Under the pieces are notes generated by a model. It ran no database searches and was not told the DNA's origin. It saw nothing but the letters and a program-made list of their open reading frames with translations. Position numbers and translations under genes: made by a program. A stretch of DNA of 20,000 bases from an uncultured virus (IMG/VR IMGVR_UViG_3300047160_035018). Taxonomy: Duplodnaviria; Heunggongvirae; Uroviricota; Caudoviricetes. The DNA is taken from IMG/VR virus record IMGVR_UViG_3300047160_035018; one strand, 5' to 3'. Positions within the stretch are counted from its first letter, which is position 1. The number at the start of each line of letters is the position of its first letter. This document shows, one piece after another, positions 4,118 to 20,000 of this stretch.

Positions 4118-4124
4118 CCTTTCA

Positions 4125-4152
4125 TTTACTGGAGCGTATCGGGGCGTACCAT
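4125..4152 (+). promoter_or_regulatory. Candidate sigma70-type promoter (TTTACT-N16-TACCAT) for a leaderless lysis-operon transcript
   Basis: Lies in the only intergenic gap before the lysis operon; -10 is 6 nt before ATG 4159; no SD. Confidence 0.4.
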
Positions 4153-4158
4153 GGTTCC

Positions 4159-4985: not shown

Positions 4986-5167
4986 GTTGGTCCATCGAGC
5001 GCATCGAGAAAAAGCTCGACCAGCTCTCCGAGAGCGTCGACAAGCTCGTGACCTTGGTCGAGATCCTCATCCACGTCGCCACGAACCAGGGCGCGACGAC
5101 CCTCGAGACCGACGCCGCGCTCCTTGTCCGGCTCGCCGACAAGATCCACTCCGAGAGGCACGCTTGA
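4982..5167 (+). CDS. Small coiled-coil hypothetical protein
   Basis: Overlaps both neighbours by 4 nt; IERIEKKLDQLSESVDKL heptads. Confidence 0.7.
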   Translation: MSWSIERIEKKLDQLSESVDKLVTLVEILIHVATNQGATTLETDAALLVRLADKIHSERHA

Positions 5168-5949
5168 GCGTTGTCATCGACGGCAAGCCCGAGCTCGTGC
5201 CCGGCATCGCATCGGCCTCATTCCTCGACGCGCCGTCGATGCGGGTTCTCCGCGAGGACCGGAGGCCGCGCATCACGAGTTGGATCCGCTCGATCATCCT
5301 CCACACGACGGTCGGTGACGAGCCCCAGGTCGTCCGGCCCGGAAAGGGGACCGGGGGGATGGCGGCGCGTACCGTCGGCGCGTGGCAGACCGACTACCGG
5401 CACGCCGGCTCGCACCTCATCATCGACGGCGACGGCTCGGTCTTCTGTCTCGCCGACCTCCTCCGCGAGGCCACCTATCACGCGACCACCATCAACGAGG
5501 TCTCGGTCGGGATCGAGATCTGCCAGAGCCCCGGCCTCGAGATCTGGCAGGCCCAGATCGATGCGGCGATCGCACTCTGCGACTGGCTGACCGGTCGGTT
5601 CGGGATCCAGCAGCAGATCCACGCGCCGTACCGCCCGAACTACCCGGTCCGGCGGCTCGCCAACGGCGGGCTCGACTGCGTGGGGATCTTCGGCCACCGG
5701 GACCAGACCGACCAGCGTGGCCGCGGCGACCCGGGTGACGCGGTGCTCGCCGCGCTGCAGCTCGCCGGCTACGAGTCCTTCGACTATGCCTCGGACCACG
5801 ACAAGGAGGCCTGGCGCCTGCGCCAGAGCGCACTCGGCGTTGGCGCCGACGGTATCCCCGGTCCGGACACCGTTCGAGCGCTCCTCGCGGCCGGCTACCC
5901 GCAGGGCTTGTGGGCCATGCGCGCCTCTCCCGCCCCGGACGCCGCATGA
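5164..5949 (+). CDS. Endolysin: N-acetylmuramoyl-L-alanine amidase (Amidase_2) with C-terminal peptidoglycan-binding motif
   Basis: Motifs IILHTT, SHLIIDGDG, YHA, NEVSVGIEI, FGHRD...DPG; PG-binding-like QSALGVGADGIPGPDT. TTG start at 5164 (TTGA overlap, SD GAGAGG). Confidence 0.9.
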   Translation: MSVVIDGKPELVPGIASASFLDAPSMRVLREDRRPRITSWIRSIILHTTVGDEPQVVRPGKGTGGMAARTVGAWQTDYRHAGSHLIIDGDGSVFCLADLLREATYHATTINEVSVGIEICQSPGLEIWQAQIDAAIALCDWLTGRFGIQQQIHAPYRPNYPVRRLANGGLDCVGIFGHRDQTDQRGRGDPGDAVLAALQLAGYESFDYASDHDKEAWRLRQSALGVGADGIPGPDTVRALLAAGYPQGLWAMRASPAPDAA

Positions 5950-6272: not shown

Positions 6273-6937
6273 CCGACCAAGCGACAACGACGATCACCCC
6301 GACCCCGGCCGCTCCGCCGGACCCGGGCTATACGACGACGGAGTTCTACATGTCGCTCGCCGCCGTCATCCTGGGCGCGTTCATCGCGTCGGGACTCTTC
6401 CCGTCCGACTCCATCGTGATGAAGATCACCGGGATGGTCTCGAGCGTCCTTGCCGCCTTCGGCTACAGTCTGTCCCGCGGCATCGTCAAGGCGGCCTACC
6501 ACCGGGCCCAGGCGGCACTGCCGGCGGCCGCCGCGGTCGCGCTGGCCCTCCACCTTTCGGCCTGCGCCTGCACCGGAAGTGGCGCGAACAGCGTCGCGTG
6601 TGTGGTCCAGCACGACCTCATCGACTGCTCCGAGTCCACGCTCGTCACCGAGGCGCCCGGGTTCTTGCCGTTCGTCTTCGAGATCGCCACCTTGCTGACT
6701 GGCCAGGGCGGGACCTTCGACTGGAGCGGGTTCGAGGCGGCGCTGGCCAAGCTGCCCTTGAAGGATGCCGCCTGCGTGGCCGGCGAGCTCGAGGCATCGT
6801 TCGGGGCGCCGACCATGAAGGCCTCGCCCTTCGCGGTCCGCGTCGCCGAGGGCTACGAGGCCGGGTGGCGCGCCTGGATGGGGAAGACGTTCCCCACGGG
6901 CACGCGGGTCAAGGTCAGAAGCGGGGCAACCCTGTGA
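6269..6937 (+). CDS. Holin-like membrane protein fused to a lipobox-bearing C-terminal domain
   Basis: PGYTTTEFY...GYSLSRG..K pattern of small two-TM phage holins, then AAAAVALALHLSAC (Cys99) and about 120 further aa. SD GGAGGAG, ATGA overlap. Confidence 0.65.
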   Translation: MTDQATTTITPTPAAPPDPGYTTTEFYMSLAAVILGAFIASGLFPSDSIVMKITGMVSSVLAAFGYSLSRGIVKAAYHRAQAALPAAAAVALALHLSACACTGSGANSVACVVQHDLIDCSESTLVTEAPGFLPFVFEIATLLTGQGGTFDWSGFEAALAKLPLKDAACVAGELEASFGAPTMKASPFAVRVAEGYEAGWRAWMGKTFPTGTRVKVRSGATL

Positions 6938-7689
6938 CGCTCCGGCTCGGCAAGCTTCCGCCGCGGGTCGACCCGCGCACGCTCCAGATGGCGAAGTACC
7001 TCGTCAGTTCCGGTGGGCCACTGCCGGCGCCGCCGGCGCGCCGTACATGGTCCCAGGCGGCCTCACCGGCCTGGGGCATGATGAAGAACGACGAGCTCGG
7101 CGACTGCACGTGCGCGGCCGCGGGCCACGCCATCCAGGTCTTCTCGGCGAACGCCGAAGCGGAGATCACGCCGACCGACGACCAGATCCTCGCCGCGTAC
7201 GAGGGCGCGTGCGGCTACGTCCCGGGCCAGCCCGACACCGATCGCGGCGGCGTCGAGCTCGACGTCCTCTCTTACTGGCAGAAGACCGGCATCGCCGGGG
7301 TCCAGATCGAGGCCTTCGCCGCGTGCGAGCCGGGGAACCATACCCACGTCAAGGCGGCCATCGACCTCTTCGGCGGCTGCTACATCGGGCTCGCCTTGCC
7401 CGCGTCGGCCCAGCGCCAGGTGGGCTCGGTCTGGTCCGTGGTCGCCGGACCATCGGCCGAGCCGGGCTCCTGGGGCGGCCATGCCGTGTTCGTGCCGGAC
7501 TACGACCGCCACGGCCTCACGTGCATCACCTGGGGCCAGCCGCAACGCATGACGTGGGGCTTCTGGCGGAAGTACACCGACGAGGCCTACGCGCTCCTCT
7601 GCCCGGACCTCTGGGCGCCGAATGGCGTCGCGCCGTCGGGGTTCGACATCGCCGCGCTGCGTGCCGATCTGGCACTCGTGGCGGGGTAA
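6934..7689 (+). CDS. Papain-like cysteine peptidase
   Basis: WGMMKNDELGDCTCAAAGH (catalytic Cys region), WGGHAV (His), ITWG; GTG start at 6934 by GTGA overlap. Confidence 0.8.
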   Translation: MTLRLGKLPPRVDPRTLQMAKYLVSSGGPLPAPPARRTWSQAASPAWGMMKNDELGDCTCAAAGHAIQVFSANAEAEITPTDDQILAAYEGACGYVPGQPDTDRGGVELDVLSYWQKTGIAGVQIEAFAACEPGNHTHVKAAIDLFGGCYIGLALPASAQRQVGSVWSVVAGPSAEPGSWGGHAVFVPDYDRHGLTCITWGQPQRMTWGFWRKYTDEAYALLCPDLWAPNGVAPSGFDIAALRADLALVAG

Positions 7690-8036
7690 TGAGCGTGCCG
7701 ATCGACATCGGCCACGGTGTGACCATCGCGTGGACTGGATGGTATCCTGATCGGGGTCTGAACCCTCAGTACGACGGTATCCCGGACATCGAGCGCGTCG
7801 GGTTCATCGTCGAGCACGATAACCCGAAGTCGCCGACTGGGCGGTGCCAGGGTTTCTGCTACGTAGATACGCCAGAGACGGCACGCATCATCCCGGACGG
7901 TCGACATCGCTGGCAGGTCCTCTCGTGGGAGCCATTGACCCTCGCGCCGTCGATCTTGTGCAAGAGCCGGAATCCGGACGGCACCGAGTGCGGCTCCCAC
8001 GGCTACATCCGCGATGGCAGGTGGGTCCCGGCGTGA
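7689..8036 (+). CDS. DUF6527-like Cys/His metal-binding protein
   Basis: C-terminal PLTLAPSILC...CGSHGYIRDGRWV signature; TAATG overlap start. Confidence 0.6.
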   Translation: MSVPIDIGHGVTIAWTGWYPDRGLNPQYDGIPDIERVGFIVEHDNPKSPTGRCQGFCYVDTPETARIIPDGRHRWQVLSWEPLTLAPSILCKSRNPDGTECGSHGYIRDGRWVPA

Positions 8037-8380
8037 CGACCGTCGACCCACGCGGCACCCTGTCGCTCTTCCACATCCTGGAGAGCGGCATCAAGAACCA
8101 ACTCGCCGAGATGGAGCGCCTCCGTGCCGAGGTGCGCGACGCCCTGGCCGGCCTGGAGAAGTTCCGGCAGGCGACGATCGCGACGGTCGAGGGGTGGCGC
8201 GACGAGCTCTCGCGCGTGCTCGGCAACACCGGGCGCGTGCTCGACGGGATGACAGCGCTACGTGAGGAGGTCCAGGGCGCCATCAACCTCCGCTCCAAGG
8301 CGGACGCGGCGTCGACGCGGGCCACGAGTCAGATCGCGCGGCCGCCGACGCTGCGAAAGAGACCACCACCCAGGAGGTGA
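8033..8380 (+). CDS. Coiled-coil hypothetical protein
   Basis: GTGA overlap start; amphipathic helices and basic tail. Confidence 0.7.
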   Translation: MTTVDPRGTLSLFHILESGIKNQLAEMERLRAEVRDALAGLEKFRQATIATVEGWRDELSRVLGNTGRVLDGMTALREEVQGAINLRSKADAASTRATSQIARPPTLRKRPPPRR

Positions 8381-8383
8381 CCC

Positions 8384-8578
8384 GTGCCGAACCCGGGCGA
8401 ACTGCACTGCCGTTCGAGGGGAGAACCCGGGAAGCCCGGCAAGGTGGGATCGGCGGTCTGCGGGGCACCGGTCCGCCAGGACCAGATGACCGACGACTTC
8501 CGCGACGTCACGTGCCGCCGGTGCTGGGCCGAGATGAGCCGCGCCGCGCACCAGCAACGGCGCAGCGTCAGGGCCTGA
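8384..8578 (+). CDS. Small zinc-finger-like protein
   Basis: H...VCG...VTCRRC pattern; SD AGGAGG upstream. Confidence 0.65.
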   Translation: MPNPGELHCRSRGEPGKPGKVGSAVCGAPVRQDQMTDDFRDVTCRRCWAEMSRAAHQQRRSVRA

Positions 8579-8596
8579 GATGGACACGCAGACCTC

Positions 8597-9247
8597 CTAC
8601 TCGAGCGGGCTCGCCTCGGCATGGCCGGCCGATAGGCTCACGTTGCCGCCGCCGTCGATGCCGCCGAAGGTCTCGAACGTCGAGAACGTGCCGTCACAGT
8701 TGAGATCGCCGATCGCGTCGGCGTAGAAGTACTCACCCGCGCCGGTCCCGGTCGGGATGGTGCCGTCGCCGAGCGTCGGAGCTGCCTTCGTGATGGTATC
8801 CACGCCTCCCGTGGCCCCCGAGCCTTGGTCGTGGTTGTACATGTAGGCGTAGTAGTGTGGATCGGTCATCGCGAACTTGAGCTGCTGCCAGGCCTGATCG
8901 GTCCAGATCACCGGGTTCGGCTGGCACTTCCCGACGCCGGCGATGGTGCAGCAAGGGTGCCCGCCAGCGATGGCCGGCTCGGTGTCACCGGTCGCGCCCG
9001 CCGCGCCCGCGACGCCCGGGAACTGTCTGGCCACGGGGATCGCCGTCCCCGCGGCGTTCATCTCCTCGTGGTAGTACGAGGTCGCGCCCTCCGCGATCTT
9101 CTTGATGTTCGTCGTGGCCTCGGTCGTCTTCGACTTACGAACGTTCTTCATGAACGCCGGGATGGCGATGGCCGCCAGGATCCCGATGATGGCCACGACC
9201 ACCATGAGCTCGATCAGCGTGAACCCGTTCTTGATCGTCTTCCGCAT
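8597..9247 (-). CDS. pilA: Type IVa prepilin (myxobacterial-type major pilin), 216 aa
   Basis: MRKTIKNG|FTLIELMVVVAIIGILAAIAIPAF class III signal with Glu5; C-terminal CC...W..L.F.M.DPHYY...GDLNCDG.FSTF. SD GGAAGGAG before ATG 9247. Confidence 0.92.
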   Translation of the reverse strand: MRKTIKNGFTLIELMVVVAIIGILAAIAIPAFMKNVRKSKTTEATTNIKKIAEGATSYYHEEMNAAGTAIPVARQFPGVAGAAGATGDTEPAIAGGHPCCTIAGVGKCQPNPVIWTDQAWQQLKFAMTDPHYYAYMYNHDQGSGATGGVDTITKAAPTLGDGTIPTGTGAGEYFYADAIGDLNCDGTFSTFETFGGIDGGGNVSLSAGHAEASPLE

Positions 9248-9290
9248 TTTTTTCTCCTTCCGCGCAGCACCGCGCTGCGCATCCATCGGT

Positions 9291-9306
9291 AGCACATCAC
9301 GTGCCG
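9291..9306 (-). promoter_or_regulatory. sigma54 (-24/-12) promoter of the pilin gene
   Basis: Minus strand CGGCACG-TGAT-GTGCT with exact GG-N10-GC spacing, about 45 nt upstream of the ATG. Confidence 0.75.
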
Positions 9307-9322
9307 GCCGTCGTCGCCGTGC

Positions 9323-9710
9323 CAGAGTGTCCTCGAACGTCTCATGCTGGGGCCCGACGGTGCGCAGGTTCGCGAAGCGGCCGTCGAGCGCGAGCATGCG
9401 CAAGGGGAGGTTGTTGCCGGGCCCGAGTTGATTCACGAGCCACCCGACACAACCGGCCGATGAAAGGTCCGCAACATCCAGTGCAAGGCGTGTCCCTGGA
9501 GGGTCCAGACGGTCCCCGAGCGCGACATTCCAGACGGGTACTCGGCCGAGAAGCACGCGGCGCTGGCCTGCACCATCGCTGACCCCGGTAACCTTCGCGG
9601 CGTCGGGAGCATGATGGCCTGTCACGAGAGCGCTGTCGGCGCCGAGGTCCCATCTTTCGAGGGCGGCGCCATTTTGCGGCCCTACGGTGACGATTTTCGG
9701 CCTGCCTCAC
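9323..9710 (-). pseudogene. DUF6283-like gene disrupted by an internal inversion (9467-9653) plus 16 extra nt
   Basis: 5' piece on minus (GTG 9710), middle piece QCKACPW...MACHES on plus, 3' piece CVGWLVNQLGPGNN...QHETFEDTL on minus. Confidence 0.75.
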
Positions 9711-10009
9711 AGGAGCAAGATCCTCACGTGGTTCACGGCCACCACGCTGTAGAACAGGTCCGCCACGACGAGCGCCCAGACCGACAGGCGGCCGCCGTGC
9801 ACGATCGTCAGTGTGGCGCCGACCCCCACCCCGCCCACCTTGATGGCCCAGAAGAGGACCGGCGACACGGCCAGCGCCGCCGCCATCCACGGGACCCCCT
9901 CGTAGACGTTCACCCAGCCGTCGAGGAAGCGCAGCGTGGCCCAGGCATCGAAGGCGACGAGCACGCCGAGGACCGACGCGAGAACGATGATCCAGCGGCG
10001 GCGGGTCAT
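9707..10009 (-). CDS. DUF5658-like membrane protein
   Basis: Several TM helices with D..AT...L..G...E..P.M......P..F...K pattern. Confidence 0.65.
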   Translation of the reverse strand: MTRRRWIIVLASVLGVLVAFDAWATLRFLDGWVNVYEGVPWMAAALAVSPVLFWAIKVGGVGVGATLTIVHGGRLSVWALVVADLFYSVVAVNHVRILLL

Positions 10010-10269
10010 GGTCCCCTCCGTGGCTCAAGATCCGCGTGCCATGTGACAAACAGGACACTGGCCTCGGGCTCGATCTCGTAGAACTCGGTCGGCGCGTCCT
10101 CGTCGTCGGCGTCGCGCACGATGACGTCGTAGAGTTGGAACCTGTCCTCTGCCGGACTAAACCAGCCCTCCATGAACCTCTCGGCGGCGTCCTTGGCATT
10201 GTGGGCCTCGATGACCTTCCGGCCGACTTTGAGATCGCCAAGATTCGGGCACCAGCAGCGGAACCTCAT
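10006..10269 (-). CDS. Small phage hypothetical protein
   Basis: ATGA-coupled on both sides; IEAHNAKDAAERF. Confidence 0.75.
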   Translation of the reverse strand: MRFRCWCPNLGDLKVGRKVIEAHNAKDAAERFMEGWFSPAEDRFQLYDVIVRDADDEDAPTEFYEIEPEASVLFVTWHADLEPRRGP

Positions 10270-10532
10270 GGGCGTGCCTCCTCGACTCTATCGTACCCGC
10301 CCGGCATCTCCCAGACCCGGCCCTCGGGGTTCCAGGCGAGATGCACGCGGATGAGGAGGGCCCGCGAGATGCCAGCTCGGTAGCCGCGCGCCGGCGCGCC
10401 GGCCTTCGTGACCTCACGGACCAGGGCGCACGGAGCGTAGCCGTGGTCGCGCCGCACCTGGGTCACGGTGACGAAGTGCCCGCGCGTCGAGCGGAAGGTA
10501 TCACCCGCGTTGACGTGGATGCGGTCGGTCAT
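10266..10532 (-). CDS. Hypothetical protein (88 aa)
   Basis: ATG 10532 overlaps the upstream stop (ATGA). Confidence 0.7.
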   Translation of the reverse strand: MTDRIHVNAGDTFRSTRGHFVTVTQVRRDHGYAPCALVREVTKAGAPARGYRAGISRALLIRVHLAWNPEGRVWEMPGGYDRVEEARP

Positions 10533-11002
10533 GACGATGACGTACTCCTCACCGGGAACGCCACCGCCACAGACTTGACCCCACGCGCCCGCACGAGGAC
10601 GAGCACGACGGTTGCCGACGGCTCGCCCTTGCGACTGAGCCGCTGGATGGGCAGGAGCTCGAGCTCGACGGCCGCCGGCCTGGCCACCACTGGCAGGACC
10701 GCGCGCACCCGATCGTGGAGGTCGAAGGCCTCCTCTTTGGGCGCCGACCGGCTCTCCCACTTGTAGTGGGTCCACGTCGGCGAGCCCTCGGCGAAGGTCA
10801 TGGACACGAGGTCCTCCGGACCCGCGCCGCGTTGCACGGCCAGGACCAGGTTGGAAGCGACGAGCGCCATGACGGCGCCGTGGACGGCGTAGCCCTCACG
10901 GGCGGCGCGGGCGATCGAGGTGAAGCTCTGCTGGGTCGCCCACGTGCGCAACTCCTCGAGGACGGCGGTACGGTCGGCGTCGGTCATGGGTGCACCCTTC
11001 AC
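10529..11002 (-). CDS. Hypothetical protein
   Basis: Coupled within the leftward arm; alternative ATG at 10987. Confidence 0.7.
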   Translation of the reverse strand: MKGAPMTDADRTAVLEELRTWATQQSFTSIARAAREGYAVHGAVMALVASNLVLAVQRGAGPEDLVSMTFAEGSPTWTHYKWESRSAPKEEAFDLHDRVRAVLPVVARPAAVELELLPIQRLSRKGEPSATVVLVLVRARGVKSVAVAFPVRSTSSS

Positions 11003-11712
11003 TCAGCCTTCAACTTGAGGAGGCCGCGCGCGGCCAACTCGTCCATGCCGTCGAGGAAGTCCGGCCGGCCCCCCTGCGCGATCAGTCCATCCGCCAGCCG
11101 CCGCGCGCGATCAGCGACAGTTCCGGCCGCGTCCTGCGCCGAGCGCGACCAGCACGCGCGGCTGATCTCCACCGCTGTCAGGTCCAGCGCCGCGGCGCGG
11201 GCATGGGCGGACAGCGAGGTGTCCGCCGCGATCTCAGCCACGCGGGCTTCGTAGTATTCGACTGACCCGACTCTGCTCGTTACCGTCATCGTCTGTCCTC
11301 CCAGCGCGCGTCCAGCGCGCTCCTTCAGCCACACCGAGAGGGCGTGCAGATCAGCCTCACTGACACCGGCGCTCTCGGTGCCATCCCAGGACTCGGCCCA
11401 GTTCGCAGCGCTCTCGCGGCAGTACTCGTCCAGCTCGTCGCCGTCGAGCGCCCGCAACCCGTCGAGCTCGCCGGCGGCATCCGTCCAGTCGTACGCCGGG
11501 TGAAGGCGCAGGGGAAGCTCGATGGCGCGGATGGCCCGGTCAGTCGCAACCTCCCCGGCACTGAGACGCAGGCCGGCGCGATCGGCGACCCACTCACAGC
11601 CGGCGGCGTGCTCCTCGGCCAGGGCCGCCCACTTCGCGTCGTCGTCGACGGCCGGGATCTTGCCGTCCTCGACCTCGGCATTGCAGTAGTCGCACTCGTA
11701 GGTCTCGCTCAT
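10999..11712 (-). CDS. Hypothetical protein with N-terminal CxxC...H...C motif
   Basis: ECDYC...EHAAGCEW; ATGA coupling. Confidence 0.7.
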   Translation of the reverse strand: MSETYECDYCNAEVEDGKIPAVDDDAKWAALAEEHAAGCEWVADRAGLRLSAGEVATDRAIRAIELPLRLHPAYDWTDAAGELDGLRALDGDELDEYCRESAANWAESWDGTESAGVSEADLHALSVWLKERAGRALGGQTMTVTSRVGSVEYYEARVAEIAADTSLSAHARAAALDLTAVEISRACWSRSAQDAAGTVADRARRLADGLIAQGGRPDFLDGMDELAARGLLKLKAE

Positions 11713-12101
11713 AGCTTTCCCAACTCCTCGATCGTGGCGTCAAGATCCTCAGCCGCACTCGCGGCGCTCGCGCTCGCCGCCGGCTTCGTCGCCGTGGCGC
11801 GCGTGACGCGGGCGCTCGGGACACGGCGCATGATCGTGTCCAGATCGCCGATGAGCTCGCCGAGGATGCTCTCGGGCAACGGCCCCGACGCGCCGGCCGG
11901 CCGGACGAGGTTGGACAGCTGCGCGCGCGCCGCGCCGAGGGCATCCAACTGTCCCGCGACGTTGGCATCCGTCGAGAACGGCGTGAGACTCACGCCCCGC
12001 GCACGGAGCCACTGGTAGAGGCGGGCCTGACGCACGGACATTTTCTGCCCATGGGGCGTCAGCAGGGCTGGCGGGTTGAGGAGCGGAAGGGGGTTGCTCA
12101 T
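11709..12101 (-). CDS. Hypothetical protein
   Basis: ATGA coupling; SD GAGGAG. Confidence 0.7.
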   Translation of the reverse strand: MSNPLPLLNPPALLTPHGQKMSVRQARLYQWLRARGVSLTPFSTDANVAGQLDALGAARAQLSNLVRPAGASGPLPESILGELIGDLDTIMRRVPSARVTRATATKPAASASAASAAEDLDATIEELGKL

Positions 12102-12304
12102 GATTTTGTCTCCTCTGGAGACCGCTCGTCACCGTTATCCCACGCTTCCCGGTTGGCCCTGCGATCTGCCCCGGTGGGGAAGTCATCGTCCTCATCCGAG
12201 GAGTAGCGGAATGCCCCACAACGGTCGCAGTATTCGTGCTCCTCCGCACCAGCGCCGCCAGTCAAGATCGTCCCGCCGCATCCACTGTGATTCGTTGTTG
12301 TCAT
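12098..12304 (-). CDS. Small zinc-ribbon-like protein
   Basis: HSGC...YCDRC motif. Confidence 0.7.
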   Translation of the reverse strand: MTTTNHSGCGGTILTGGAGAEEHEYCDRCGAFRYSSDEDDDFPTGADRRANREAWDNGDERSPEETKS

Positions 12305-12306
12305 GG

Positions 12307-13539
12307 TCAGATCTCCAGGGGGCGAATGCGATTGCCCCGATCGTCAATCCAGATGGTCACGCCGCGCTCGTCGGCGCCGAAGTTCCGCGGCCAGGCGGGC
12401 CCGCCCGGGATGCCATCGGCGTCAACCCAGTCGGCGGCCGGCGCGGCCGGTGCCGCATCCACGGCCGGCGGCGCGGCCGGTGCAACCTCGACAACCTCAG
12501 CGGCCGGCGCGGCCGGAACCGGCGGGTCAGCGGCGCCGCTCATGTCGACGTTGGCGAACCGCGCCACAGCGTCAGCAGCGCGATCCTGCCAGTCGGGCAC
12601 AATCGGGCGATCTTCCAGGTCGAGGAGAACGGGCGCGCCCACGTCGCGACCATCCAGCTTGCCCTTCGCGTACTCGAGGGTCATGGCGAGATTGCGCTTG
12701 AGCTTCTCGACCAGATTGATCGCGGCAACGGCCGGCCGCTCGAACAGGTCGGAGTAGCGGTTGATCTTGGCGCGCCACTCCGAGATGAGACCGAATCGCC
12801 GCTCAAGCGCGCGGGTCCCGATCGCGCCATCCTCGTCGAGAGTGACCGCCGCCAGCTCCGCCTGCAGCGCCTCCGCCGCAACCCGCGCCTCCGCCTCGAG
12901 ACCGGCCAGGATGGTATCCACGGCCGCATCGCTCCGCATGGCGGGAATCTCGCCGACGAAATGACGGGTCGACGCGGCGACGGCGCCGATCATCTCCCGC
13001 CACAGCGCCGCATGCTTGGGGGGCACGTAGTACACCCCGCCACTGTCCCGCAGGACGGCCACACCGTCGCACGCATCGACACAGCGCCGGAGAAACAGGC
13101 TCATGTCGCCGTGGGCCAGCTCGCGCCGCGCCGCCTGGTAGGCGCCAGCGATGCGCGGCGCATCCGGATCGTGCGTAGGGGACCCATCGGGGTTGGACAC
13201 GACGATCCGATCCTTGTCGGACGGGTCGACCCGCACGACGAGCCGCGGGGCATACTCGGGCAGACCCGAGGCGAACCCCACGTCCACGATGGCCCAACCG
13301 CCGCCAGCGCTGGCGGGGAGCTTCTCGAGCCGCACGCCAGCCTTGCCCGCCGAGCGGATCGCCACACCTAGTGCCGCCTCCGGCGTCACGGGCTGAGGAA
13401 GCAACTTCTCGGGCAGGTTGCGCTCGGACCATGCCGCGACGAGCCGCGCAAGGTCAGCCGAGCCATGGAGCGACCAGCCAGCGATGAGGCCAAAGCCCGC
13501 GCCGCCGCCGTCGGTTACTGCGATGAGGTTGGGGGCCAT
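12307..13539 (-). CDS. DUF6744/DUF3150-like mobile-element protein with Ala/Pro-rich linker
   Basis: 410 aa; N-terminal G....WSL...L...W....L....LP and LRDSGGVYYVP motif; PAAPA repeats near the C-terminus. Confidence 0.6.
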   Translation of the reverse strand: MAPNLIAVTDGGGAGFGLIAGWSLHGSADLARLVAAWSERNLPEKLLPQPVTPEAALGVAIRSAGKAGVRLEKLPASAGGGWAIVDVGFASGLPEYAPRLVVRVDPSDKDRIVVSNPDGSPTHDPDAPRIAGAYQAARRELAHGDMSLFLRRCVDACDGVAVLRDSGGVYYVPPKHAALWREMIGAVAASTRHFVGEIPAMRSDAAVDTILAGLEAEARVAAEALQAELAAVTLDEDGAIGTRALERRFGLISEWRAKINRYSDLFERPAVAAINLVEKLKRNLAMTLEYAKGKLDGRDVGAPVLLDLEDRPIVPDWQDRAADAVARFANVDMSGAADPPVPAAPAAEVVEVAPAAPPAVDAAPAAPAADWVDADGIPGGPAWPRNFGADERGVTIWIDDRGNRIRPLEI

Positions 13540-13541
13540 GG

Positions 13542-13763
13542 CTACGCCCCCACCTTGCGGAGAAGCACCTTGACCGCCCGCTCGAGGCGGTCACGATACC
13601 GCTCCTTCAGCTGAAGGTCGCCCGAGCGACGCAGCGAAAACGCTGCGTCGCAGGCGATAGCCGCCAGTTCGTCAATTTCCATGTCGTCATCAATGCGGAA
13701 CGCGCGCGCATTGATGAGGAGACGGCACATCTCCTCCTCAGCCTCGGACCTAATGTAGGACAT
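13542..13763 (-). CDS. Hypothetical protein, first gene of the leftward arm
   Basis: SD GGAAAGG; follows a sigma54 promoter and hairpin leader. Confidence 0.75.
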   Translation of the reverse strand: MSYIRSEAEEEMCRLLINARAFRIDDDMEIDELAAIACDAAFSLRRSGDLQLKERYRDRLERAVKVLLRKVGA

Positions 13764-13772
13764 CTGGGAACG

Positions 13773-13818
13773 CCTTTCCGCTCTGTCCGCCAGAGCTTGC
13801 CGCGCCGTCCGCCGGCGC
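13773..13818 (-). promoter_or_regulatory. Twin pentaloop-hairpin leader plus SD (leftward)
   Basis: GCGCCG-GCGGA-CGGCGC, GGCAA, GCTCTG-GCGGA-CAGAGC, GGAAAGG. Confidence 0.75.
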
Positions 13819-13832
13819 CTGACCAGGTACCT

Positions 13833-13848
13833 TGCATCGCCCGTGCCA
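13833..13848 (-). promoter_or_regulatory. sigma54 promoter, leftward arm
   Basis: Minus strand TGGCACG-GGCG-ATGCA, one mismatch from TGGCACG-N4-TTGCW. Confidence 0.85.
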
Positions 13849-14061
13849 GCCTTTATATCAGTATAACTACCTGTTTTTACTTGCTCGCCATAGGGAGCCT
13901 GTCGCTTTTTCGGTCAGGCACGGTCCCGCGCGCCTGGCCACCGTAGCTACTTTACCTAGTAGTTTCGCAGTTATACGCCTCGCCTGTCGTGCCATCGGTC
14001 GCCTCTGACGCGAAACAGGACAGTCAGGCGGGTTGGCCACGTATTTACGCCTACTTACACG

Positions 14062-14077
14062 TGGCACGCCCGCTGCA
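14062..14077 (+). promoter_or_regulatory. sigma54 promoter, rightward arm
   Basis: TGGCACG-CCCG-CTGCA, one mismatch from consensus. Confidence 0.85.
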
Positions 14078-14088
14078 ATACCGTCCCT

Positions 14089-14138
14089 CGTGCCGACGGA
14101 CGGCACGCCAAAGGGCCCGGCTGACGGGCCCGGAAAGG
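14089..14138 (+). promoter_or_regulatory. Twin pentaloop-hairpin leader plus SD (rightward)
   Basis: CGTGCCG-ACGGA-CGGCACG, CCAAA, GGGCCCG-GCTGA-CGGGCCC, GGAAAGG. Confidence 0.75.
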
Positions 14139-14143
14139 TCCCG

Positions 14144-14683
14144 ATGGATACCATCTTCCCCAAGGGCCAGATTCAGGCTGTGGTTTCAGTGGCTTCGGAT
14201 GATTTCTGCCGTCAGGGCATCTATGGTGTCTCGGTCGGCGACGGCTATCTGTGCGCGACCGATGGCCATCGGCTCCTGCAGGTCAAGGCCACGGCTAGCG
14301 CCGCGCCGAGCGCCTACGTGGCGAAGGAAGGCCTCCAGATCGCCGCCGCCGCCGCCAAGGGCAAGGGTGCCGCCGTCCGGCTGAACGGCCGGATCGAGGC
14401 GCGCAACGGAGCTGGCGCGGTTCTGGCCACGGCCGAACTGGTCCCCATCGATGCCCAGTTTCCGCCCGTGGACCAGGCCATCCCGCAGGACGGGCCCGCC
14501 ATCGCGTCCTTCAACCCGCGGCTCCTGGGTGAAACGCTCCTGGCCATGGCCAGGGCGGGGTGTGAGTGTGTCTCCCTCACGTTCGCCGAGAGTGAGGCGC
14601 ACGTGTCACCGCTCAAGATCGCTGGCATCGCCGCCGATGGCGGCGCCGAGGTTGTGGCCGTCGTCATGCCGAGGAGAGCGTAG
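14144..14683 (+). CDS. Truncated DNA polymerase III beta-clamp-like protein (179 aa; central and C-terminal domains)
   Basis: ASDD..R..I.GV, ATDGHRL, FPP....IP, FNP..L and terminal VVMPRR match DnaN domain II/III motifs. SD GGAAAGG. Confidence 0.8.
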   Translation: MDTIFPKGQIQAVVSVASDDFCRQGIYGVSVGDGYLCATDGHRLLQVKATASAAPSAYVAKEGLQIAAAAAKGKGAAVRLNGRIEARNGAGAVLATAELVPIDAQFPPVDQAIPQDGPAIASFNPRLLGETLLAMARAGCECVSLTFAESEAHVSPLKIAGIAADGGAEVVAVVMPRRA

Positions 14684-14685
14684 CC

Positions 14686-15306
14686 ATGGCGCGCAGCAAG
14701 GCATGGCGTGTGACCGTCGACGGCAAGCGCTACCAGGCGCTCGAGGCTTCCGCCGTCCTCGACGATCATGGTTCCGGCGGCTTCAACCATCCGTCGTTGT
14801 GGCTGAAGTTCGGGCGCGTCGAGTCGGATGGATCGGTCGCGTCCGATGGGTACGGGGACCGGCGCCGCGTCACGGTGCAGATCCGCTATCAGCGCGACCT
14901 GTTCCGGTCGGATGACACCTACTTCCGCCCGGCGGAAGGTCGCATGGACACGCGGCTCCGGTGGAGCACGTGCTACGCCGGCCGCATCGCGCTCGACGAC
15001 GGCGCCAGCGTGCACATGGATCAGGAGTACACGCTCGGCACCGAGGACAGGCTCCGGATCAAGGTCGCGTCGCTCATCCGCGCGACGATCCGAGAGTACA
15101 ACATCAGTGCGGTCTACCACGATGAGTTTCAGGCGGCCGCCGCCGCCGTCGAAAAGCTCGGCTGTGGGGTGGCGTGGGAGTATCGCTCGCGCTCGCTCGG
15201 TGGCCTCGTGCCGCTCGGCTCGATTGAGGAGCGCTACGCGAACGAGCGTGCCGCCAAGGATGCCGCGCGCGCGGCCGTGCCCAGTTCCGACGCGGAGGTT
15301 GCATAG
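14686..15306 (+). CDS. Hypothetical protein (206 aa)
   Basis: TAGCCATG junction; SD GAGGAG. Confidence 0.8.
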   Translation: MARSKAWRVTVDGKRYQALEASAVLDDHGSGGFNHPSLWLKFGRVESDGSVASDGYGDRRRVTVQIRYQRDLFRSDDTYFRPAEGRMDTRLRWSTCYAGRIALDDGASVHMDQEYTLGTEDRLRIKVASLIRATIREYNISAVYHDEFQAAAAAVEKLGCGVAWEYRSRSLGGLVPLGSIEERYANERAAKDAARAAVPSSDAEVA

Positions 15307-15308
15307 CC

Positions 15309-15554
15309 ATGCGCATGCTTGTGCCTGGAGTCTGTCAGGGCCAGATCATCGAGTGCTCGTTCGGCTGGTGCCGCGGCGAGCTCTATCAGTGCGTGCTCGA
15401 CCGATCGGATCGCTCCGTCCAGTGGTACCGCGCCGATCCGGTCTCGCGAGATCGGCTACTCGACGAGGACTATGACGGAGCGCGGGATTGGGAGCCCACG
15501 GTGGATTCTTGGATTCCGTGCGACGAGCCCAACGACGACGAGGAGGAGGAGTAG
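15309..15554 (+). CDS. Hypothetical protein with acidic tail
   Basis: TAGCCATG junction; SD GGAGG. Confidence 0.7.
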   Translation: MRMLVPGVCQGQIIECSFGWCRGELYQCVLDRSDRSVQWYRADPVSRDRLLDEDYDGARDWEPTVDSWIPCDEPNDDEEEE

Positions 15555-15556
15555 CC

Positions 15557-15763
15557 ATGAGCCGGCGCTACACCCTCGACGATCTCAGGCACACGCCGCT
15601 CGGCGACGTTATCGCCGCTTGGCGCGCCGGGTCCGTCGACGATCGCACCTACGAGGAGTACCGGTGCCTCTGGCGCAACAGCGCGCCGCGGTTCTCGAAC
15701 GAGTGCAAGGAGCATGACGGCCACGATCCCGCGCAGTGTCCTCGCGTGACGGAGATGGGCTAA
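15557..15763 (+). CDS. Hypothetical protein (68 aa)
   Basis: TAGCCATG junction; SD GAGGAG. Confidence 0.7.
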   Translation: MSRRYTLDDLRHTPLGDVIAAWRAGSVDDRTYEEYRCLWRNSAPRFSNECKEHDGHDPAQCPRVTEMG

Positions 15764-15764
15764 G

Positions 15765-15998
15765 ATGCGCGCCCACTGCTCTTGCGGTGACAACCGCGTC
15801 CACGTGGTGGCCAGGCGTACAACCGCCGACCACGTAGGGCTCAAGCTTTGGTCAGACGGCGCCGTGACGAACGTCATCGGAGGGTACCCGCCGAGCATGC
15901 GGAAGGTCCCGGCCGCCCTGATCTTCGACTTCGCCGCCGAGGTCGAGGCCTACGACTGGTCCGAGCTTCACGTGCTCGGCCGGAAGGTGAGGGGCTAA
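15765..15998 (+). CDS. Hypothetical protein
   Basis: Flanked by 14-bp direct repeats GGGCTAAGATGCGC. Confidence 0.7.
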   Translation: MRAHCSCGDNRVHVVARRTTADHVGLKLWSDGAVTNVIGGYPPSMRKVPAALIFDFAAEVEAYDWSELHVLGRKVRG

Positions 15999-15999
15999 G

Positions 16000-16404
16000 A
16001 TGCGCCAGCGCCACCACTACGTGGTCCAGTACGTCATCACGGTCGACCGGCCGGAGCTGCGCGGGCCCACGTTTTTGACGACGGTCCGCCCGGGAACCAG
16101 GATCCCACAGGCCGCGGAGTACCTCACGCTCGCGGCGGCGCGCGCCCGGTACGATGATCTCAAGGACGGCATCGACGATTTCACGTCAGAGTACGTGTCC
16201 GTCATCGACGGGATCCGCCGTGAACCCTCCGCAAGCGCCGCCACCCGCTGGGTGAGGGGCGCGCCCACGATCCGCCGACGCCGCATCAAGGACGGCACGG
16301 TCCATGAGCCGCATCCTTGCCCGCGGTGCCAGGGCGAGACCTGGGAACCCACCGACATCAACTGTCTGGCGTGCCAGGCACTTGCGCGAGGATCCCATGC
16401 GTAA
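16000..16404 (+). CDS. Hypothetical protein with C-terminal CxxC...CxxC zinc finger
   Basis: CPRC...CLAC. Confidence 0.7.
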   Translation: MRQRHHYVVQYVITVDRPELRGPTFLTTVRPGTRIPQAAEYLTLAAARARYDDLKDGIDDFTSEYVSVIDGIRREPSASAATRWVRGAPTIRRRRIKDGTVHEPHPCPRCQGETWEPTDINCLACQALARGSHA

Positions 16405-16714
16405 CCGCTACGTGGTCCAGTACGTCATCAAGTGGTCGGGGTCGTGGAACGTGGTGGATAGGACGTCCTCCGGGGGACCCGTCGCGAACCATCTGAACCG
16501 CGCCGATGCGCGTGCCGACGCGAAGCGACGCAACGATGACGCCGGCCCGTGCACTGATTGCCGCGGCCGGGGCTGGCTGCACATGCGCTCCTCGGATACC
16601 GGCCCGCTCGACCACATCGAGCGCTGCGATACGTGCCGGTGCTTCACCAGCGACAAAGCGGCCGCGAAACAGCACGCCCACGACTGCGCGTGCGGGAGGA
16701 CGGCTCGGTCATGA
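16397..16714 (+). CDS. Hypothetical zinc-binding protein
   Basis: ATG 16397 after GAGGA; CTDCRGRG...RCDTC...H..DC; N-terminus duplicated from the previous gene. Confidence 0.7.
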   Translation: MRNRYVVQYVIKWSGSWNVVDRTSSGGPVANHLNRADARADAKRRNDDAGPCTDCRGRGWLHMRSSDTGPLDHIERCDTCRCFTSDKAAAKQHAHDCACGRTARS

Positions 16715-16782
16715 AGGACGACGAGGACGAGCTCGGGCCCGTCGAAGGTGTCTTTGCTCGAGACGACGAGGTGCCACGATGA
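16711..16782 (+). CDS. 23-aa acidic peptide MKDDEDELGPVEGVFARDDEVPR
   Basis: ATGA overlaps at both ends; SD GGAGGA. Confidence 0.45.
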   Translation: MKDDEDELGPVEGVFARDDEVPR

Positions 16783-16952
16783 AGTCCGCCCGTACCTACT
16801 GGGTCGTGGTCGAGATCCAGACCGGTGAGCGCCGGGTCTTCGAGACCGCGGCGGCCGCAGAGGCCTTCGCCCGCGAGCGCGGTGATTGCGAGGTCTACCC
16901 GGAGGAGTTGCGCCGAAAGGGACACGCGCTCGTCCCGGCGAGGACCGCATGA
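16779..16952 (+). CDS. Small hypothetical protein
   Basis: ATGA coupling; SD GAGG. Confidence 0.65.
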   Translation: MKSARTYWVVVEIQTGERRVFETAAAAEAFARERGDCEVYPEELRRKGHALVPARTA

Positions 16953-17248
16953 GCGCCTCGAGCGTCAAGTTCCGGCCGACCCACCGGATCGTGTTCGGCG
17001 CCGGCGAGATCGTGGTCATGCTGGTGGAGGACCGGATCGGCTGGGGCGGTCCCGCCTATACCGCCACGGAGTGGGACCACGCTGCGGTTCCCGACTGGGA
17101 GCTCGTCGATGGCCGATGGCTGTTCCAGGGCCGCGCGCCGCACCATCTCGGCCCGTATCGGGTCGTCCCCTTTCACTGGCAGGACATCCGCGCCCTGGAT
17201 GCCGCCACCGACCTCCTCGAGACCAAGAAGGAGACCGACCATGGATAG
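16949..17248 (+). CDS. Hypothetical protein
   Basis: ATGA coupling; GPAYT..EW motif. Confidence 0.7.
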   Translation: MSASSVKFRPTHRIVFGAGEIVVMLVEDRIGWGGPAYTATEWDHAAVPDWELVDGRWLFQGRAPHHLGPYRVVPFHWQDIRALDAATDLLETKKETDHG

Positions 17249-17510
17249 CTACGCCTCCGACATCCCGCTCGCCGTCGCCATCGCCGCCCACAACGGCACG
17301 TCGCACGTGCCCGAGGAGCGCGGCGCCGGCGAGGTCGCCGAGTACGCGAAGACCCTGGCGGGGGACTACGAGCGCCTCCTCACCTACGCCCGGACCGACG
17401 AGAAGCGGCTCAAGGCCGCCGGGTTCCGGTGGGCGCCGAGCCTGGGCTGCTGGCAGGCCTACCGCAACCACGCGACCCTCACCACGGCCAGGCGCGAGGC
17501 CGGGCTGTGA
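17241..17510 (+). CDS. Short, probably internally deleted DUF3560-related protein
   Basis: N-terminal AH.GTS..PE.RG motif joined directly to C-terminal LK..GFRWAPS.G.WQ motif; SD AAGGAG. Confidence 0.55.
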   Translation: MDSYASDIPLAVAIAAHNGTSHVPEERGAGEVAEYAKTLAGDYERLLTYARTDEKRLKAAGFRWAPSLGCWQAYRNHATLTTARREAGL

Positions 17511-17740
17511 GCGCCCCCAAGGTCGCTCTCAAGGTCGACGCCGACCAACTGGCCGAGATCCTCGCCGACTACGGGGCGGCGCGGCGCATCCTCCGCTGGC
17601 TCTCCCAGCAGCCCGGCCATGACACCTTCGCGCCGGACGAGGATGTGATCCACAAGCTGGCGCGCGACTACGCCACGAACTCCAGGGCCGAGACGAAGGC
17701 ACTGGATGCCGTCCTCGAGCTCGCCGGCGAGGACTGCTGA
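17507..17740 (+). CDS. Hypothetical protein
   Basis: GTGA coupling. Confidence 0.7.
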   Translation: MSAPKVALKVDADQLAEILADYGAARRILRWLSQQPGHDTFAPDEDVIHKLARDYATNSRAETKALDAVLELAGEDC

Positions 17741-17790
17741 GTGATCCCCAGGCGCCCGGCGGGCGCAACCACGACAGGAGGGCACGCACG

Positions 17791-17985
17791 ATGAACCTGG
17801 ACCAGTTCACACACGTCGTACAGCGGCTCGTCGGTGACTTCGAGGAGTTCGTCAAGCACCTGGCCGAGATCAAGGACGACGAGGCCTACCCGGAGACCCA
17901 GGCCGAGGATCTCTGGTTCGAGGACCTCGGCGACTTCTTTCAGGCCGACCCGCACCGGCGGCGGGGCAAGGTGCAGGCACCATGA
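17791..17985 (+). CDS. Small acidic hypothetical protein
   Basis: SD AGGAGG; D/E-rich. Confidence 0.7.
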   Translation: MNLDQFTHVVQRLVGDFEEFVKHLAEIKDDEAYPETQAEDLWFEDLGDFFQADPHRRRGKVQAP

Positions 17986-18242
17986 CATGCAACGGCGGTC
18001 ACCGGCTCGTCGTGAGCATCGGTTACGATTGGGAACTGGAGACGACGTGCGCAGCGTGGCGCGCGTGGGAGGACATGCCCACTCCTGAACGGAAGCAGAC
18101 GCCAGCACCAGGATGCAATGGAGAAGAAGCCTGGTGGTCGAAGAGTGAGGCCATCTGGAAGCCCATGGTGCTGGAGATGTCAGGCCACCTCCTCGCGCGC
18201 GTTCAGACGGCGCTGGATGCAGACGACGGAGCAGGCACATGA
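17982..18242 (+). CDS. Hypothetical protein
   Basis: ATGA coupling at both ends. Confidence 0.6.
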   Translation: MTCNGGHRLVVSIGYDWELETTCAAWRAWEDMPTPERKQTPAPGCNGEEAWWSKSEAIWKPMVLEMSGHLLARVQTALDADDGAGT

Positions 18243-18613
18243 TCGATCTCGACGAGGACAGTTACGTGGCGTGCATCTGGTTCGTGGCCATCGACGAGCC
18301 GCGGGGCAGTTACCTCGGCACGCTCTTTCGCCCGCATCCCGGTGCGTCGATGCGCTTCCACTACCGGACCCGGTACGAGGACGATGCCCAGGACGCACGG
18401 CTCGGGCGCTCCGCGACGCTCGTCGCCCTTGGCCCGGCCGAGGACATCGCCGCCATGGAGCGCGCCCTGGACGATTCCATCGGTCTTGTCGCCGCCGAGC
18501 TTGGCGCGCCACTCCAGAAGCTCAAAGTCCACGGCGGCATTCATCGCCTCGCCGAACTCAGCGAGACCGTGCCGTGGATGCACGCACGGTCGACCGCCGA
18601 GGTCAAGGCATGA
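18239..18613 (+). CDS. Hypothetical protein
   Basis: ATGA coupling at both ends. Confidence 0.75.
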   Translation: MIDLDEDSYVACIWFVAIDEPRGSYLGTLFRPHPGASMRFHYRTRYEDDAQDARLGRSATLVALGPAEDIAAMERALDDSIGLVAAELGAPLQKLKVHGGIHRLAELSETVPWMHARSTAEVKA

Positions 18614-18807
18614 AGAAGGAGTGGACCGCGCGGGATCTTGACGTCATCGGGCGCGCCGAGATGTTTCCCGCTGGCAACACGAGAGAGCGGCGGAGCCGAC
18701 GCTGGCGGTATGCCCGCCGCGCCTACTTCGCGAGCGGCCAGCACCGAGCTTGGACGCGGGTCCATACCGCAACGCTGATCCTTCCTCTCCCAGAGGGACA
18801 ACCATGA
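18610..18807 (+). CDS. Small Arg-rich hypothetical protein
   Basis: ATGA coupling at both ends; bridges to the Cas12m-like gene. Confidence 0.6.
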   Translation: MKKEWTARDLDVIGRAEMFPAGNTRERRSRRWRYARRAYFASGQHRAWTRVHTATLILPLPEGQP

Positions 18808-20000
18808 TCGTCTACAAGTTCTGGGCCGAGCCCGTCAGCAAGGAGGACCGTAACCTCCTCGCCCAGCAGCTCCGCATGGCGGCGCTCTACCGGCGCGAGC
18901 TCGCCCAGATCGAGAACCGCGCCCGGTTCCTTCTCCGCGCCGGCATCGGCTACCCCAGCGAGGAGCGGAAGGCCCACCGGACGCTCGTGAACACGGCCCA
19001 CGCCGAGGCGACCCGCGCCGCGCGCGCCCGCGCCAGCGACGCCGGCCTCTACTGGGGTACCTACCTCTGCGTCGAGAACGCCACCGACCAGTCACAGCGA
19101 ACGACCTCCCTCGCGAGCGACGTGGCCACGTTCTCACCCGCCGATGAGGGACTCCTGGGGGTCCAGATCCAGAAGACCAAGCCGCTCCGTACCGGCGAGG
19201 TCATGGGCGGTACGGACCGTCGACTCCGCATCGGCACCGAGCTCGTCGCCAAGCGCGAGGGCGGCGCGCGTCGGCTCCAGGTCCTCTGGTTCCGGGTCGG
19301 CTCGAACCCCGACGCCACGCCCGTCTGGGCCAAGCTCTACGTGCTCCTTCACCGGCCCCTGCCCATGTCTGCGGCGCCGACCCTGGGCGCCGACTCCGAA
19401 AATCGTCTCGGTCCCGACGTCAAGTGGGCGCTGCTCCGGTGCCGGCGCACCGGGCCGCGCCATCGCTGGGAGTTCCACCTCGTCCTCGACATGGAGGCCA
19501 GGGGCACGCCGCTCGCCCACCGCGCCGATGCCGTGGGCGTGGACATCGGCTGGCGGCGCGTCGACGCGGGCATCCGCATCGCGTACTGGCACGGCTCCGA
19601 CGGCCGCGAGGGCGAGCTCGTCGTGCCCGATGCGGTCGCACGGCGTGACGGGAAGTCGGACAGCCTGCGCTCCATCCGGGATGTCCAGCGGGACATCATG
19701 CAGGCGCGGCTGGTGGCGTTCCGGCAGGCAGTCTCTGCGGGCTCGAGGACGGGGCCCGACTTTGCGTTCAGCTGGTTCCTGGACGAGACGACCGCGCTCC
19801 ACAGTTGGAAGCGTATGGGCCGGTACGTCCACCTCTTCCGGCTCTGGTCCCAGCACCGCTTCGACGGCGACGAGAGTATGTACATCCAGGTCGAGAAGTG
19901 GCTGAAGCACGATCGCCACCTTTACAGTTGGGAGACGCACAACCGGCGCCGGCAGAGCCTCCAGGTCGCAGGGAGGGTGAGGCAGTTCGTGGTGGAGCTC
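18804..20000 (+). CDS. cas12m: Cas12m (type V-M/V-U1)-like, TnpB-derived RNA-guided protein; 3'-truncated by the window (first 399 codons)
   Basis: Hand translation, open to the window end: MIVYKFW...QQLRMAALYRRELAQIE...GLYWGTYL...GLLGVQIQ...FRVGS...PVWA...LHRPLP...WEFHLVL...AVGVDIGWR (RuvC-I)...GELVVP...WK...WLKHDRHLYSWE. Motif order parallels MmCas12m as I recall it. Confidence 0.82.
   Translation, partial: MIVYKFWAEPVSKEDRNLLAQQLRMAALYRRELAQIENRARFLLRAGIGYPSEERKAHRTLVNTAHAEATRAARARASDAGLYWGTYLCVENATDQSQRTTSLASDVATFSPADEGLLGVQIQKTKPLRTGEVMGGTDRRLRIGTELVAKREGGARRLQVLWFRVGSNPDATPVWAKLYVLLHRPLPMSAAPTLGADSENRLGPDVKWALLRCRRTGPRHRWEFHLVLDMEARGTPLAHRADAVGVDIGWRRVDAGIRIAYWHGSDGREGELVVPDAVARRDGKSDSLRSIRDVQRDIMQARLVAFRQAVSAGSRTGPDFAFSWFLDETTALHSWKRMGRYVHLFRLWSQHRFDGDESMYIQVEKWLKHDRHLYSWETHNRRRQSLQVAGRVRQFVVEL

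Follow-up and report, generated by a model that had tools for sequence, protein, structure and literature searches.

A Cas12m-type effector gene with a short REC lobe on a phage-like element from a soil metagenome

Results

The cas12m gene at the end of the window

The DNA analysed here is a stretch of 20,000 nucleotides from an uncultured virus assigned to the Caudoviricetes (IMG/VR record IMGVR_UViG_3300047160_035018), and this whole stretch is called the window. At its end a frame of 399 codons without a stop (18804-20000, plus strand) runs past the last letter. It encodes the first part of an effector of the Cas12m family, subtype V-M of the CRISPR (clusters of regularly interspaced short palindromic repeats) systems, and the encoded protein is devoid of the REC2 coiled coil of the characterised family members. 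An initial annotation, made from the letters alone, had proposed such a gene and noted that the open reading frame (ORF) track had missed it. In the ORF listing the frame appears solely when open ends are allowed (18750..20000, 3' open), and this open 3' end explains why it was missed.

The cas12m frame starts with the ATG at 18804-18806, which shares letters with the TGA of the preceding frame at 18805-18807 in the sequence ATGA, and a second ATGA at 18610-18613 joins the two small ORFs that precede cas12m. The gene is translationally coupled to these small ORFs; both the translation and the overlap of start and stop agree with the annotated coupling of 399 open codons to a small-gene operon. 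The ATG at 18804 was taken as the true start because the relatives open with M-x-V-Y-K/R-Y/F-W-x-E-P, which reads MIVYKFWAEP here, and because AGAGGGA precedes it by 5 nt. In the alignment with a relative of 530 residues (P0009), residue 399 stands 10 residues ahead of the RuvC-II glutamate, so the full protein should have about 560 residues and its stop should lie about 0.5 kb past 20000. The window holds the 5' two-thirds of the effector gene, and RuvC-II, RuvC-III and the zinc ribbon are located beyond position 20000.

Identical contig pieces of the window DNA, 151-330 nt long, were found in the soil-metagenome runs X1-X4, and none of the listed runs was of RNA. These pieces do not lengthen the gene, and a 61-nt sequence from the window end had no exact match in viral, genome or metagenome contigs. 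One contig of 619 nt (run X2, record 12) joins 19167 to 19903, skips 735 nt within the gene and continues past the window end. The contig probably reflects a mis-join in the assembly and not a deletion variant, since one side of the join has just 25 letters.

Assignment to the Cas12m family

The 399 residues matched the PADLOC model Cas12u1 of type V-U1, now named V-M, with an E-value of 6.4e-38 over profile positions 89-408 of 533, and a PADLOC model labelled Cas12f gave the same score on this fragment. Pfam and NCBIfam searches with the 399 residues gave no match, nor did a megablast search of positions 17000-20000 against phages. When the fragment was compared by phmmer with the sequences of the PDB, the only match of note was the Cas12m entry 23vw (E 1.3e-16). 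A profile built from 21 close relatives matched 23vw at 1.1e-83, Cas12m2 at 3.5e-41, GoCas12m at 7e-33 and UnCas12m4a at 2e-32, whereas TnpB and Cas12f were matched via the C-terminal RuvC/zinc-ribbon part alone, at about 1e-11 or weaker. Relatives that cover 100% of the fragment show 40-49% BLAST identity and are 525-678 residues long.

The structure of the 399 residues was predicted with AlphaFold2 (AF2) at a predicted local distance difference test (pLDDT) score of 88.8. With this model Foldseek ranked Cas12m2 (1.2e-14) and GoCas12m (E about 1e-14) first, Cas12f at 2e-5 and TnpB at 4e-3. VIA-align superimposed 359-370 residues on four Cas12m entries with Z 19.1-20.4 and a root-mean-square deviation of 3.6-4.0; Cas12f and TnpB reached Z 13-14. 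Cas12m2 (MmCas12m of Mycolicibacterium mucogenicum; PDB 8HHL, 8HHM and 8HIO) and GoCas12m (8PM4) have the same order of WED, REC, WED and RuvC with a TNB zinc finger. The best sequence match among the solved structures was 23vw, a protein of 577 residues that carries the name Cas12m solely as its depositor's molecule name and has motifs of the D-E-D type (IDLGWR, LEE and WDQD). A literature search found no paper on 23vw, nor on UnCas12m4a, Cas12m3 or Cas12m4. TnpB of ISDra2 (PDB 8H1J and 8EXA) shares the RuvC and zinc-ribbon core, but it aligned over 250 residues with a Z of about 13, uses an omega-RNA and sits in insertion sequence (IS) elements. Between RuvC-I and RuvC-II Cas12m has about 80 residues more than TnpB, and these are also present in the window protein. 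Sequence, profile and predicted fold all assign the protein to the Cas12m effectors. The annotated Cas12m-like identity was borne out by PADLOC, the PDB profile, Foldseek and VIA-align, and in the comparison of profiles and structures that the annotation had proposed, Cas12m came out best and TnpB far weaker.

A REC lobe without REC2

In the AF2 model the REC lobe consists of three helices (Table 1). The motifs QQLR (residues 21-24) and LYWGTY (residues 82-87) are separated by 57 residues, close to the annotated distance of about 60. In alignments with hidden Markov models (HMMs), 23vw and GoCas12m (8PM4) had about 55-65 additional residues midway through the REC region, for 23vw about 55 residues more than in the helical region of the window protein. 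In pairwise alignments, window residues 3-71 and 50-88 matched residues 3-63 and 117-152 of long-form relatives, so that the gap corresponds to Cas12m2 residues 53-120. In Cas12m2 and GoCas12m this segment is the REC2 coiled coil of about 68 residues, which the window protein does not have. Residues 53-120 of Cas12m2 are disordered together with REC2 in an intermediate state (PMC10442227), and the best structural match to our model, by both Foldseek and VIA-align, was 8HHM, the Cas12m2 state with a disordered REC2. W84 of GLYWGTY falls, in the alignment, on the region of Cas12m2 around Trp152, a residue that contacts the protospacer-adjacent motif (PAM) according to PMC10442227.

The spacing between the first strand and the conserved tryptophan was then compared in 114 distinct family sequences. 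It is bimodal, with 64-81 residues in the group of the window protein and about 130-143 (about 135) in most others. The window protein itself has a REC region of 71-74 residues, four plasmid TnpBs have 74-87 and MsCas12m has about 108. The REC lobe of TnpB is accordingly of the same size as that of the window's clade (61-81 residues). Among the best 150 of 2,440 representatives (E<=1e-30), 131 were measurable and 24 of these have a REC region of at most 85 residues in proteins of 501-612 residues; a short REC is therefore a recurrent minority form and not a one-off. Taken together, the AF2 model, the HMM and pairwise alignments and the family-wide distances agree with the short REC region of the annotation.

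Within the window's clade the long REC forms are secondary, as in two members with acidic low-complexity inserts (P0002 and P0003). Another member (L023:246-2285) has a REC of 135 residues in which a two-helix hairpin is duplicated in tandem (YRRELVRIENLARVL... is present twice).

The REC2 coiled-coil insertion in REC1, which Omura et al. (2023) called 'characteristic', is absent from the window protein. We treat REC2 as a trait of the characterised members and not of subtype V-M, which is defined by effector phylogeny. In the parts of PMC10442227 and bioRxiv 10.64898/2026.03.26.714355 available to us, and in those of PMC10691335 on Cas12m and V-M only, no natural Cas12m without REC2 is described, but the list of 134 variants of PMC11013384 may hold members with a short REC. 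A compact D-E-D Cas12m is MsCas12m of the Allomeiothermus silvanus plasmid pMESIL02 (WP_013159911.1, 536 residues), the best plasmid match of the clade (E 4e-43, 33% identity), which processes its precursor of the CRISPR RNA (pre-crRNA). It differs from the window protein in its REC of intermediate length (about 108 versus 71 residues) and its plasmid location, and it falls outside the clade.

The RuvC site

The RuvC-I motif reads VDIGWR, and 21 relatives all share D247, W250 and R251. The annotated intact aspartate was thus confirmed by the translation and by the alignment. D247 aligns with His317 of Cas12m2 ('vaLhlGWR'; numbering of PMC10442227). Cas12m2 and GoCas12m have histidine at RuvC-I (HDD), where the window protein has aspartate. 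Conservation in 20 close relatives is 90% or higher for the RuvC-II glutamate, the RuvC-III aspartate and the CxxC..CxxC ribbon, and the zinc-ribbon region of relatives matches PF07282. The D-E-D triad is present in 132 of the best 150 of the 2,440 representatives. In two close relatives (P0007 and P0019) alanine replaces the RuvC-III aspartate (D-E-A) in an otherwise conserved protein, which hints that cutting may not be under selection in the window's clade.

Among the described Cas12m triads (HEK/HQK, HDD, DED/NED and DED/DND/NED), the RuvC-I aspartate fits the DED types. Clades 3 and 4 of Cas12m are described with this aspartate and with DED, NED or DND triads (PMC10442227). For V-M as a whole, PMC10691335 speaks of a 'gradual inactivation' of the site, of short arrays and of the absence of other cas genes. 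An intact aspartate, the lack of cas1 and cas2 and carriage by a phage are ordinary for subtype V-M.

CRISPR arrays of the relatives

No CRISPR-like array was found in window positions 1-20000, and the repeat motif of the relatives had 0 matches in the window at 0.38 expected. The annotation had reported no array, cas1/cas2 or tnpA upstream, and the repeat and family searches of the window agree. The missing upstream array says little, because the arrays of the relatives lie downstream of the gene, which is beyond 20000 here. For the count, 81 related loci were used (two duplicates were dropped), of which 63 had a stop followed by 300 nt or more, and an array was scored when it started within -100..+600 nt of the stop. 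An array with repeats of about 36 nt directly followed the gene in 49 of the 63 loci, and in 10 of 15 phage and IMG/VR loci. Two of the 14 misses (L021 and L023) had 2-3 repeats on closer look. In the nearest relative (L018; 49% identity, 530 residues) repeats of 36 nt start 14 nt after the stop. The repeats of the relatives end with ...GAC, and 4 of 6 fold into the same 7-bp stem and 7-nt loop beside the spacer, with differing stem letters. As in the Cas12m2 and GoCas12m systems, the arrays of the relatives are without adaptation genes. The window's gene likely has an array as well, which would start near 20.5 kb and so outside the window.

The spacers of 66 array regions gave only chance matches of 14-18 nt to the window. 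The L023 array holds two nearly identical spacers of 22 nt, and four loci (L012, L028, L035 and L006) carry, besides the array after the gene, a second or third CRISPR-like one at a distance of a few kb.

Phylogeny

For the trees, the REC columns were left out of the alignment. The window protein falls in a fully supported clade of 26 rows, of which 15 have a short, 6 a middle and 5 a long REC (111 rows; three N-terminal fragments were left out). When four plasmid TnpBs were used as outgroup in FastTree, this clade was nested behind 17 successive sister groups that nearly all have a long REC (113 rows; six fragments or long branches were left out), so the loss of REC2 is secondary on that tree. 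A careful IQ-TREE analysis of 57 rows placed TnpB on the stem of the window's clade, and thereby made it the sister group of the whole remaining Cas12m family, with only 47% ultrafast bootstrap and in 44% of 200 bootstrap trees. In the approximately unbiased (AU) test this sister-to-all placement was not rejected (p 0.94). A quick IQ-TREE tree was set aside, as the constrained tree was better by 51 log-likelihood units. Since both stems are long, long-branch attraction is possible. The idea of the annotation that the protein is an intermediate from TnpB to Cas12m is neither supported nor rejected, as the TnpB-rooted trees disagree.

The element around cas12m

The amidase gene of the endolysin type (Table 1) is the main evidence for a phage-like element. 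Further phage-like signs in the window are the phrog_19005 member, a phrog_1574 family, a weak RusA/clamp-like match and a pilin-like gene on the minus strand. The annotated phage-like surroundings fit the amidase and the PHROG families, and the element is probably a phage or prophage, otherwise another mobile element. Among the 38 candidate ORFs of the window neither cas1, cas2 nor tnpA was found with Pfam and PHROGs (E<=0.001), and scans for Rfam families, tRNAs, promoters and terminators gave nothing above chance.

Table 1. Features of the window (positions in nucleotides from its first letter)
Feature	Position	Strand	Basis
N-acetylmuramoyl-L-alanine amidase, endolysin-type	4987..5949	+	PF01510, E 1.2e-13; PHROG endolysin families, best 1.4e-14
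Member of phrog_19005, function unknown	6598..7689	+	PHROG, E 6.4e-43; tblastn matches in 4 phage records
Small ORF, 124 aa, joined by ATGA to the following ORF	18239..18613	+	No family match
Small ORF, 65 aa, stop overlaps the cas12m start (ATGA)	18610..18807	+	No family match
Shine-Dalgarno-like AGAGGGA, 5 nt before the ATG	18792..18798	+	Putative, from the sequence only
cas12m gene, first 399 codons	18804..20000	+	Open frame; PADLOC Cas12u1; PDB 23vw; 100% query coverage by relatives of 525-604 aa
First WED strand, residues 2-10	18807..18833	+	AF2, block pLDDT 93
REC lobe of three helices (13-49, 52-79, 84-100), without REC2 coiled coil	18840..19103	+	AF2 secondary structure; HMM alignments
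WED beta-barrel part, residues 116-228	19149..19487	+	AF2 strands; aligned to Cas12m2 and GoCas12m, Z 19-20
RuvC domain, first part: strands 244-275, helices 281-398	19533..20000	+	AF2; alignments
RuvC-I catalytic Asp codon, D247 in VDIGWR	19542..19544	+	Invariant column in 21 relatives

Other genes were seen in the window. The ORF at 8597-9625 (minus strand) has a PF07963 N-terminal methylation motif (E 3.6e-08), matches the PHROG 'pilin' moron family (E 1e-12) and looks like a type IV pilin. The ORF at 7047-8036 (plus strand) has a DUF6527 match (E 1.8e-05) and that at 9707-10009 (minus strand) a DUF5658 match (E 1.9e-06), both with unknown roles. Since the former and the phrog_19005 ORF occupy overlapping positions in different frames, only one of these two calls can be right. 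Short direct repeats lie at the starts of neighbouring small ORFs in the operon that precedes cas12m (15748-15770/15983-16005, 87% identical; 16008-16039/16399-16430, 91%), which suggests that these small genes are tandem paralogues.

Relatives of the protein occur on 16 IMG/VR loci (15 distinct contigs) and in one GenBank phage, Rctr197k, where the gene adjoins an annotated CRISPR. A tyrosine integrase (L018:868-1779; phrog_1, E 1e-27) is encoded about 550 nt upstream of the cas12m gene of L018 and therefore places that locus in an integrative element. When the window was compared by tblastx with 83 related loci, no single high-scoring segment pair outside cas12m exceeded about 50 bits. These matches are compositional noise, and hence no synteny is shared with the related loci.

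V-M systems on prophages have been published (PMC11656645). A phage-encoded example is MvCas12m of myxophage MV-1, with a D-E-D triad (D305/E463/D555), an adjacent array of 8 spacers and no cas1, cas2 or cas4 (bioRxiv 10.64898/2026.09.14.751636). It has 610 residues, and its RuvC-I aspartate is D305 as against D247 here, so it probably has a long REC; it is set apart from the window protein by description only.

Discussion

The Cas12m effector of this phage-like mobile element from a soil community probably binds double-stranded DNA (dsDNA) guided by a CRISPR RNA (crRNA) and silences its targets without cutting them. The complete protein of about 560 residues would contain the RuvC-II glutamate, a CxxC..CxxC zinc ribbon and the RuvC-III aspartate, and a short array with repeats of about 36 nt would follow within about 0.2 kb of the stop. 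The protein would probably cut its own pre-crRNA, with the 3' hairpin of the repeat staying on as a 5' handle, and would then bind PAM-flanked dsDNA that matches the spacer. Transcription or replication of the target would be blocked and the DNA not cut, as for the tested D-E-D Cas12m proteins. The targets are likely to be competing phages or plasmids, and possibly host genes. In Cas12m2, REC2 holds the PAM-distal duplex and helps to form an Arg-rich pocket (PMC10442227). Without REC2 the duplex of guide and target would probably be shorter, nearer to the 12 bp of TnpB than to the 17 bp of Cas12m2.

The same effector might instead be an active RNA-guided DNase, with an intact D-E-D RuvC that cuts targets as TnpB does and lets the phage destroy its competitors. 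D247 is intact, the close relatives keep the RuvC-II and RuvC-III residues, the triad predominates among the representatives, and the REC lobe is as large as in TnpB, a cutter. However, all four D-E-D Cas12m proteins for which PMC11013384 gives tests bound PAM-flanked dsDNA and did not cut it, the conversion of HDD to DED left Cas12m2 unable to cut (PMC10442227), and the alanine at RuvC-III in P0007 and P0019 suggests that selection does not act on cutting. We regard a nuclease as unlikely. Still less likely is an array-less regulator with a single fixed guide RNA that represses a host or phage promoter in the manner of TldR. TldR can be carried by phages and, as is proposed for the window protein, binds DNA with an RNA guide to silence transcription, and prophage-encoded TldRs repress the host fliC (PMC10705468). 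The window has no array, 12 of 63 relatives are without an adjacent one, the nearest relatives have just 2-6 repeats, and the gene is co-translated with a small-gene operon. The relatives' arrays, however, are downstream, where the window has no sequence, and the window's clade has arrays, whereas TldR uses one fixed guide. TldRs also lost the RuvC triad and the zinc finger (PMC10705468), both of which the clade keeps: D247 is present here, and E, D and CxxC..CxxC are present in the relatives.

A plain TnpB gene, brought into a phage genome by an IS200/IS605 or IS607 element, is highly improbable. The C-terminal parts of the relatives match PF07282 and the NCBIfam guided_TnpB below the cut-off, but the full-length matches are to Cas12m and not to TnpB, and the relatives carry CRISPR arrays. 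Among the 38 window ORFs no tnpA was found, and on the 5' side a left end has no space, as the start codon shares letters with the stop of the preceding gene.

Several points weigh against silencing by a phage-borne Cas12m. The window lacks genes for capsid, portal and terminase, the phage call resting on the endolysin-type amidase and a few PHROG families, and the largest window ORFs had no or weak matches only to phages, Atlas and PHROGs (E<=0.1). The gene is cut at residue 399, so that a frameshift downstream or an array-less locus is possible. By the strict test 14 of the 63 relatives had no array, 12 after the closer look at two, and just two short-REC relatives (L018 and L021) have readable downstream DNA. 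The characterised Cas12m proteins all have REC2, and their mechanism is transferred here by inference. Nuclease activity was raised as possible for clades 3 and 4 with their intact D-E-D (PMC10442227).

It is a tentative possibility that the clade without REC2 is the earliest branch of Cas12m and took up CRISPR arrays while it still had a REC lobe of TnpB size. If so, it would contradict the published idea that REC2 enabled Cas12m to act in CRISPR immunity. Such proteins would use a TnpB-like duplex of about 12 bp or compensate otherwise, for example by pairing like Cas12f, and at 500-575 residues they would be natural DNA binders smaller than the engineered xCas12m of 581 residues.

What is new here is the missing REC2 in a natural branch of Cas12m; the family and its carriage by prophages are already known, and the gene is incomplete in the window. 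The finding is for these reasons useful rather than surprising. Cas12m proteins are natural 'dead' Cas12 effectors that are used for base and epigenome editing, where size limits delivery; one group has engineered a version of 581 residues. The branch of the window protein naturally has 501-575 residues and no REC2 arm, yet its members lie beside CRISPR arrays. For phage biology, the locus adds a further phage-like element with a minimal, adaptation-free CRISPR system, most likely for the competition between mobile elements. Omura et al. proposed that REC2 is crucial for the role of Cas12m in adaptive immunity (PMC10442227). A working Cas12m without REC2 would directly test that proposal and would show the minimum protein that is needed for stable RNA-guided DNA binding.

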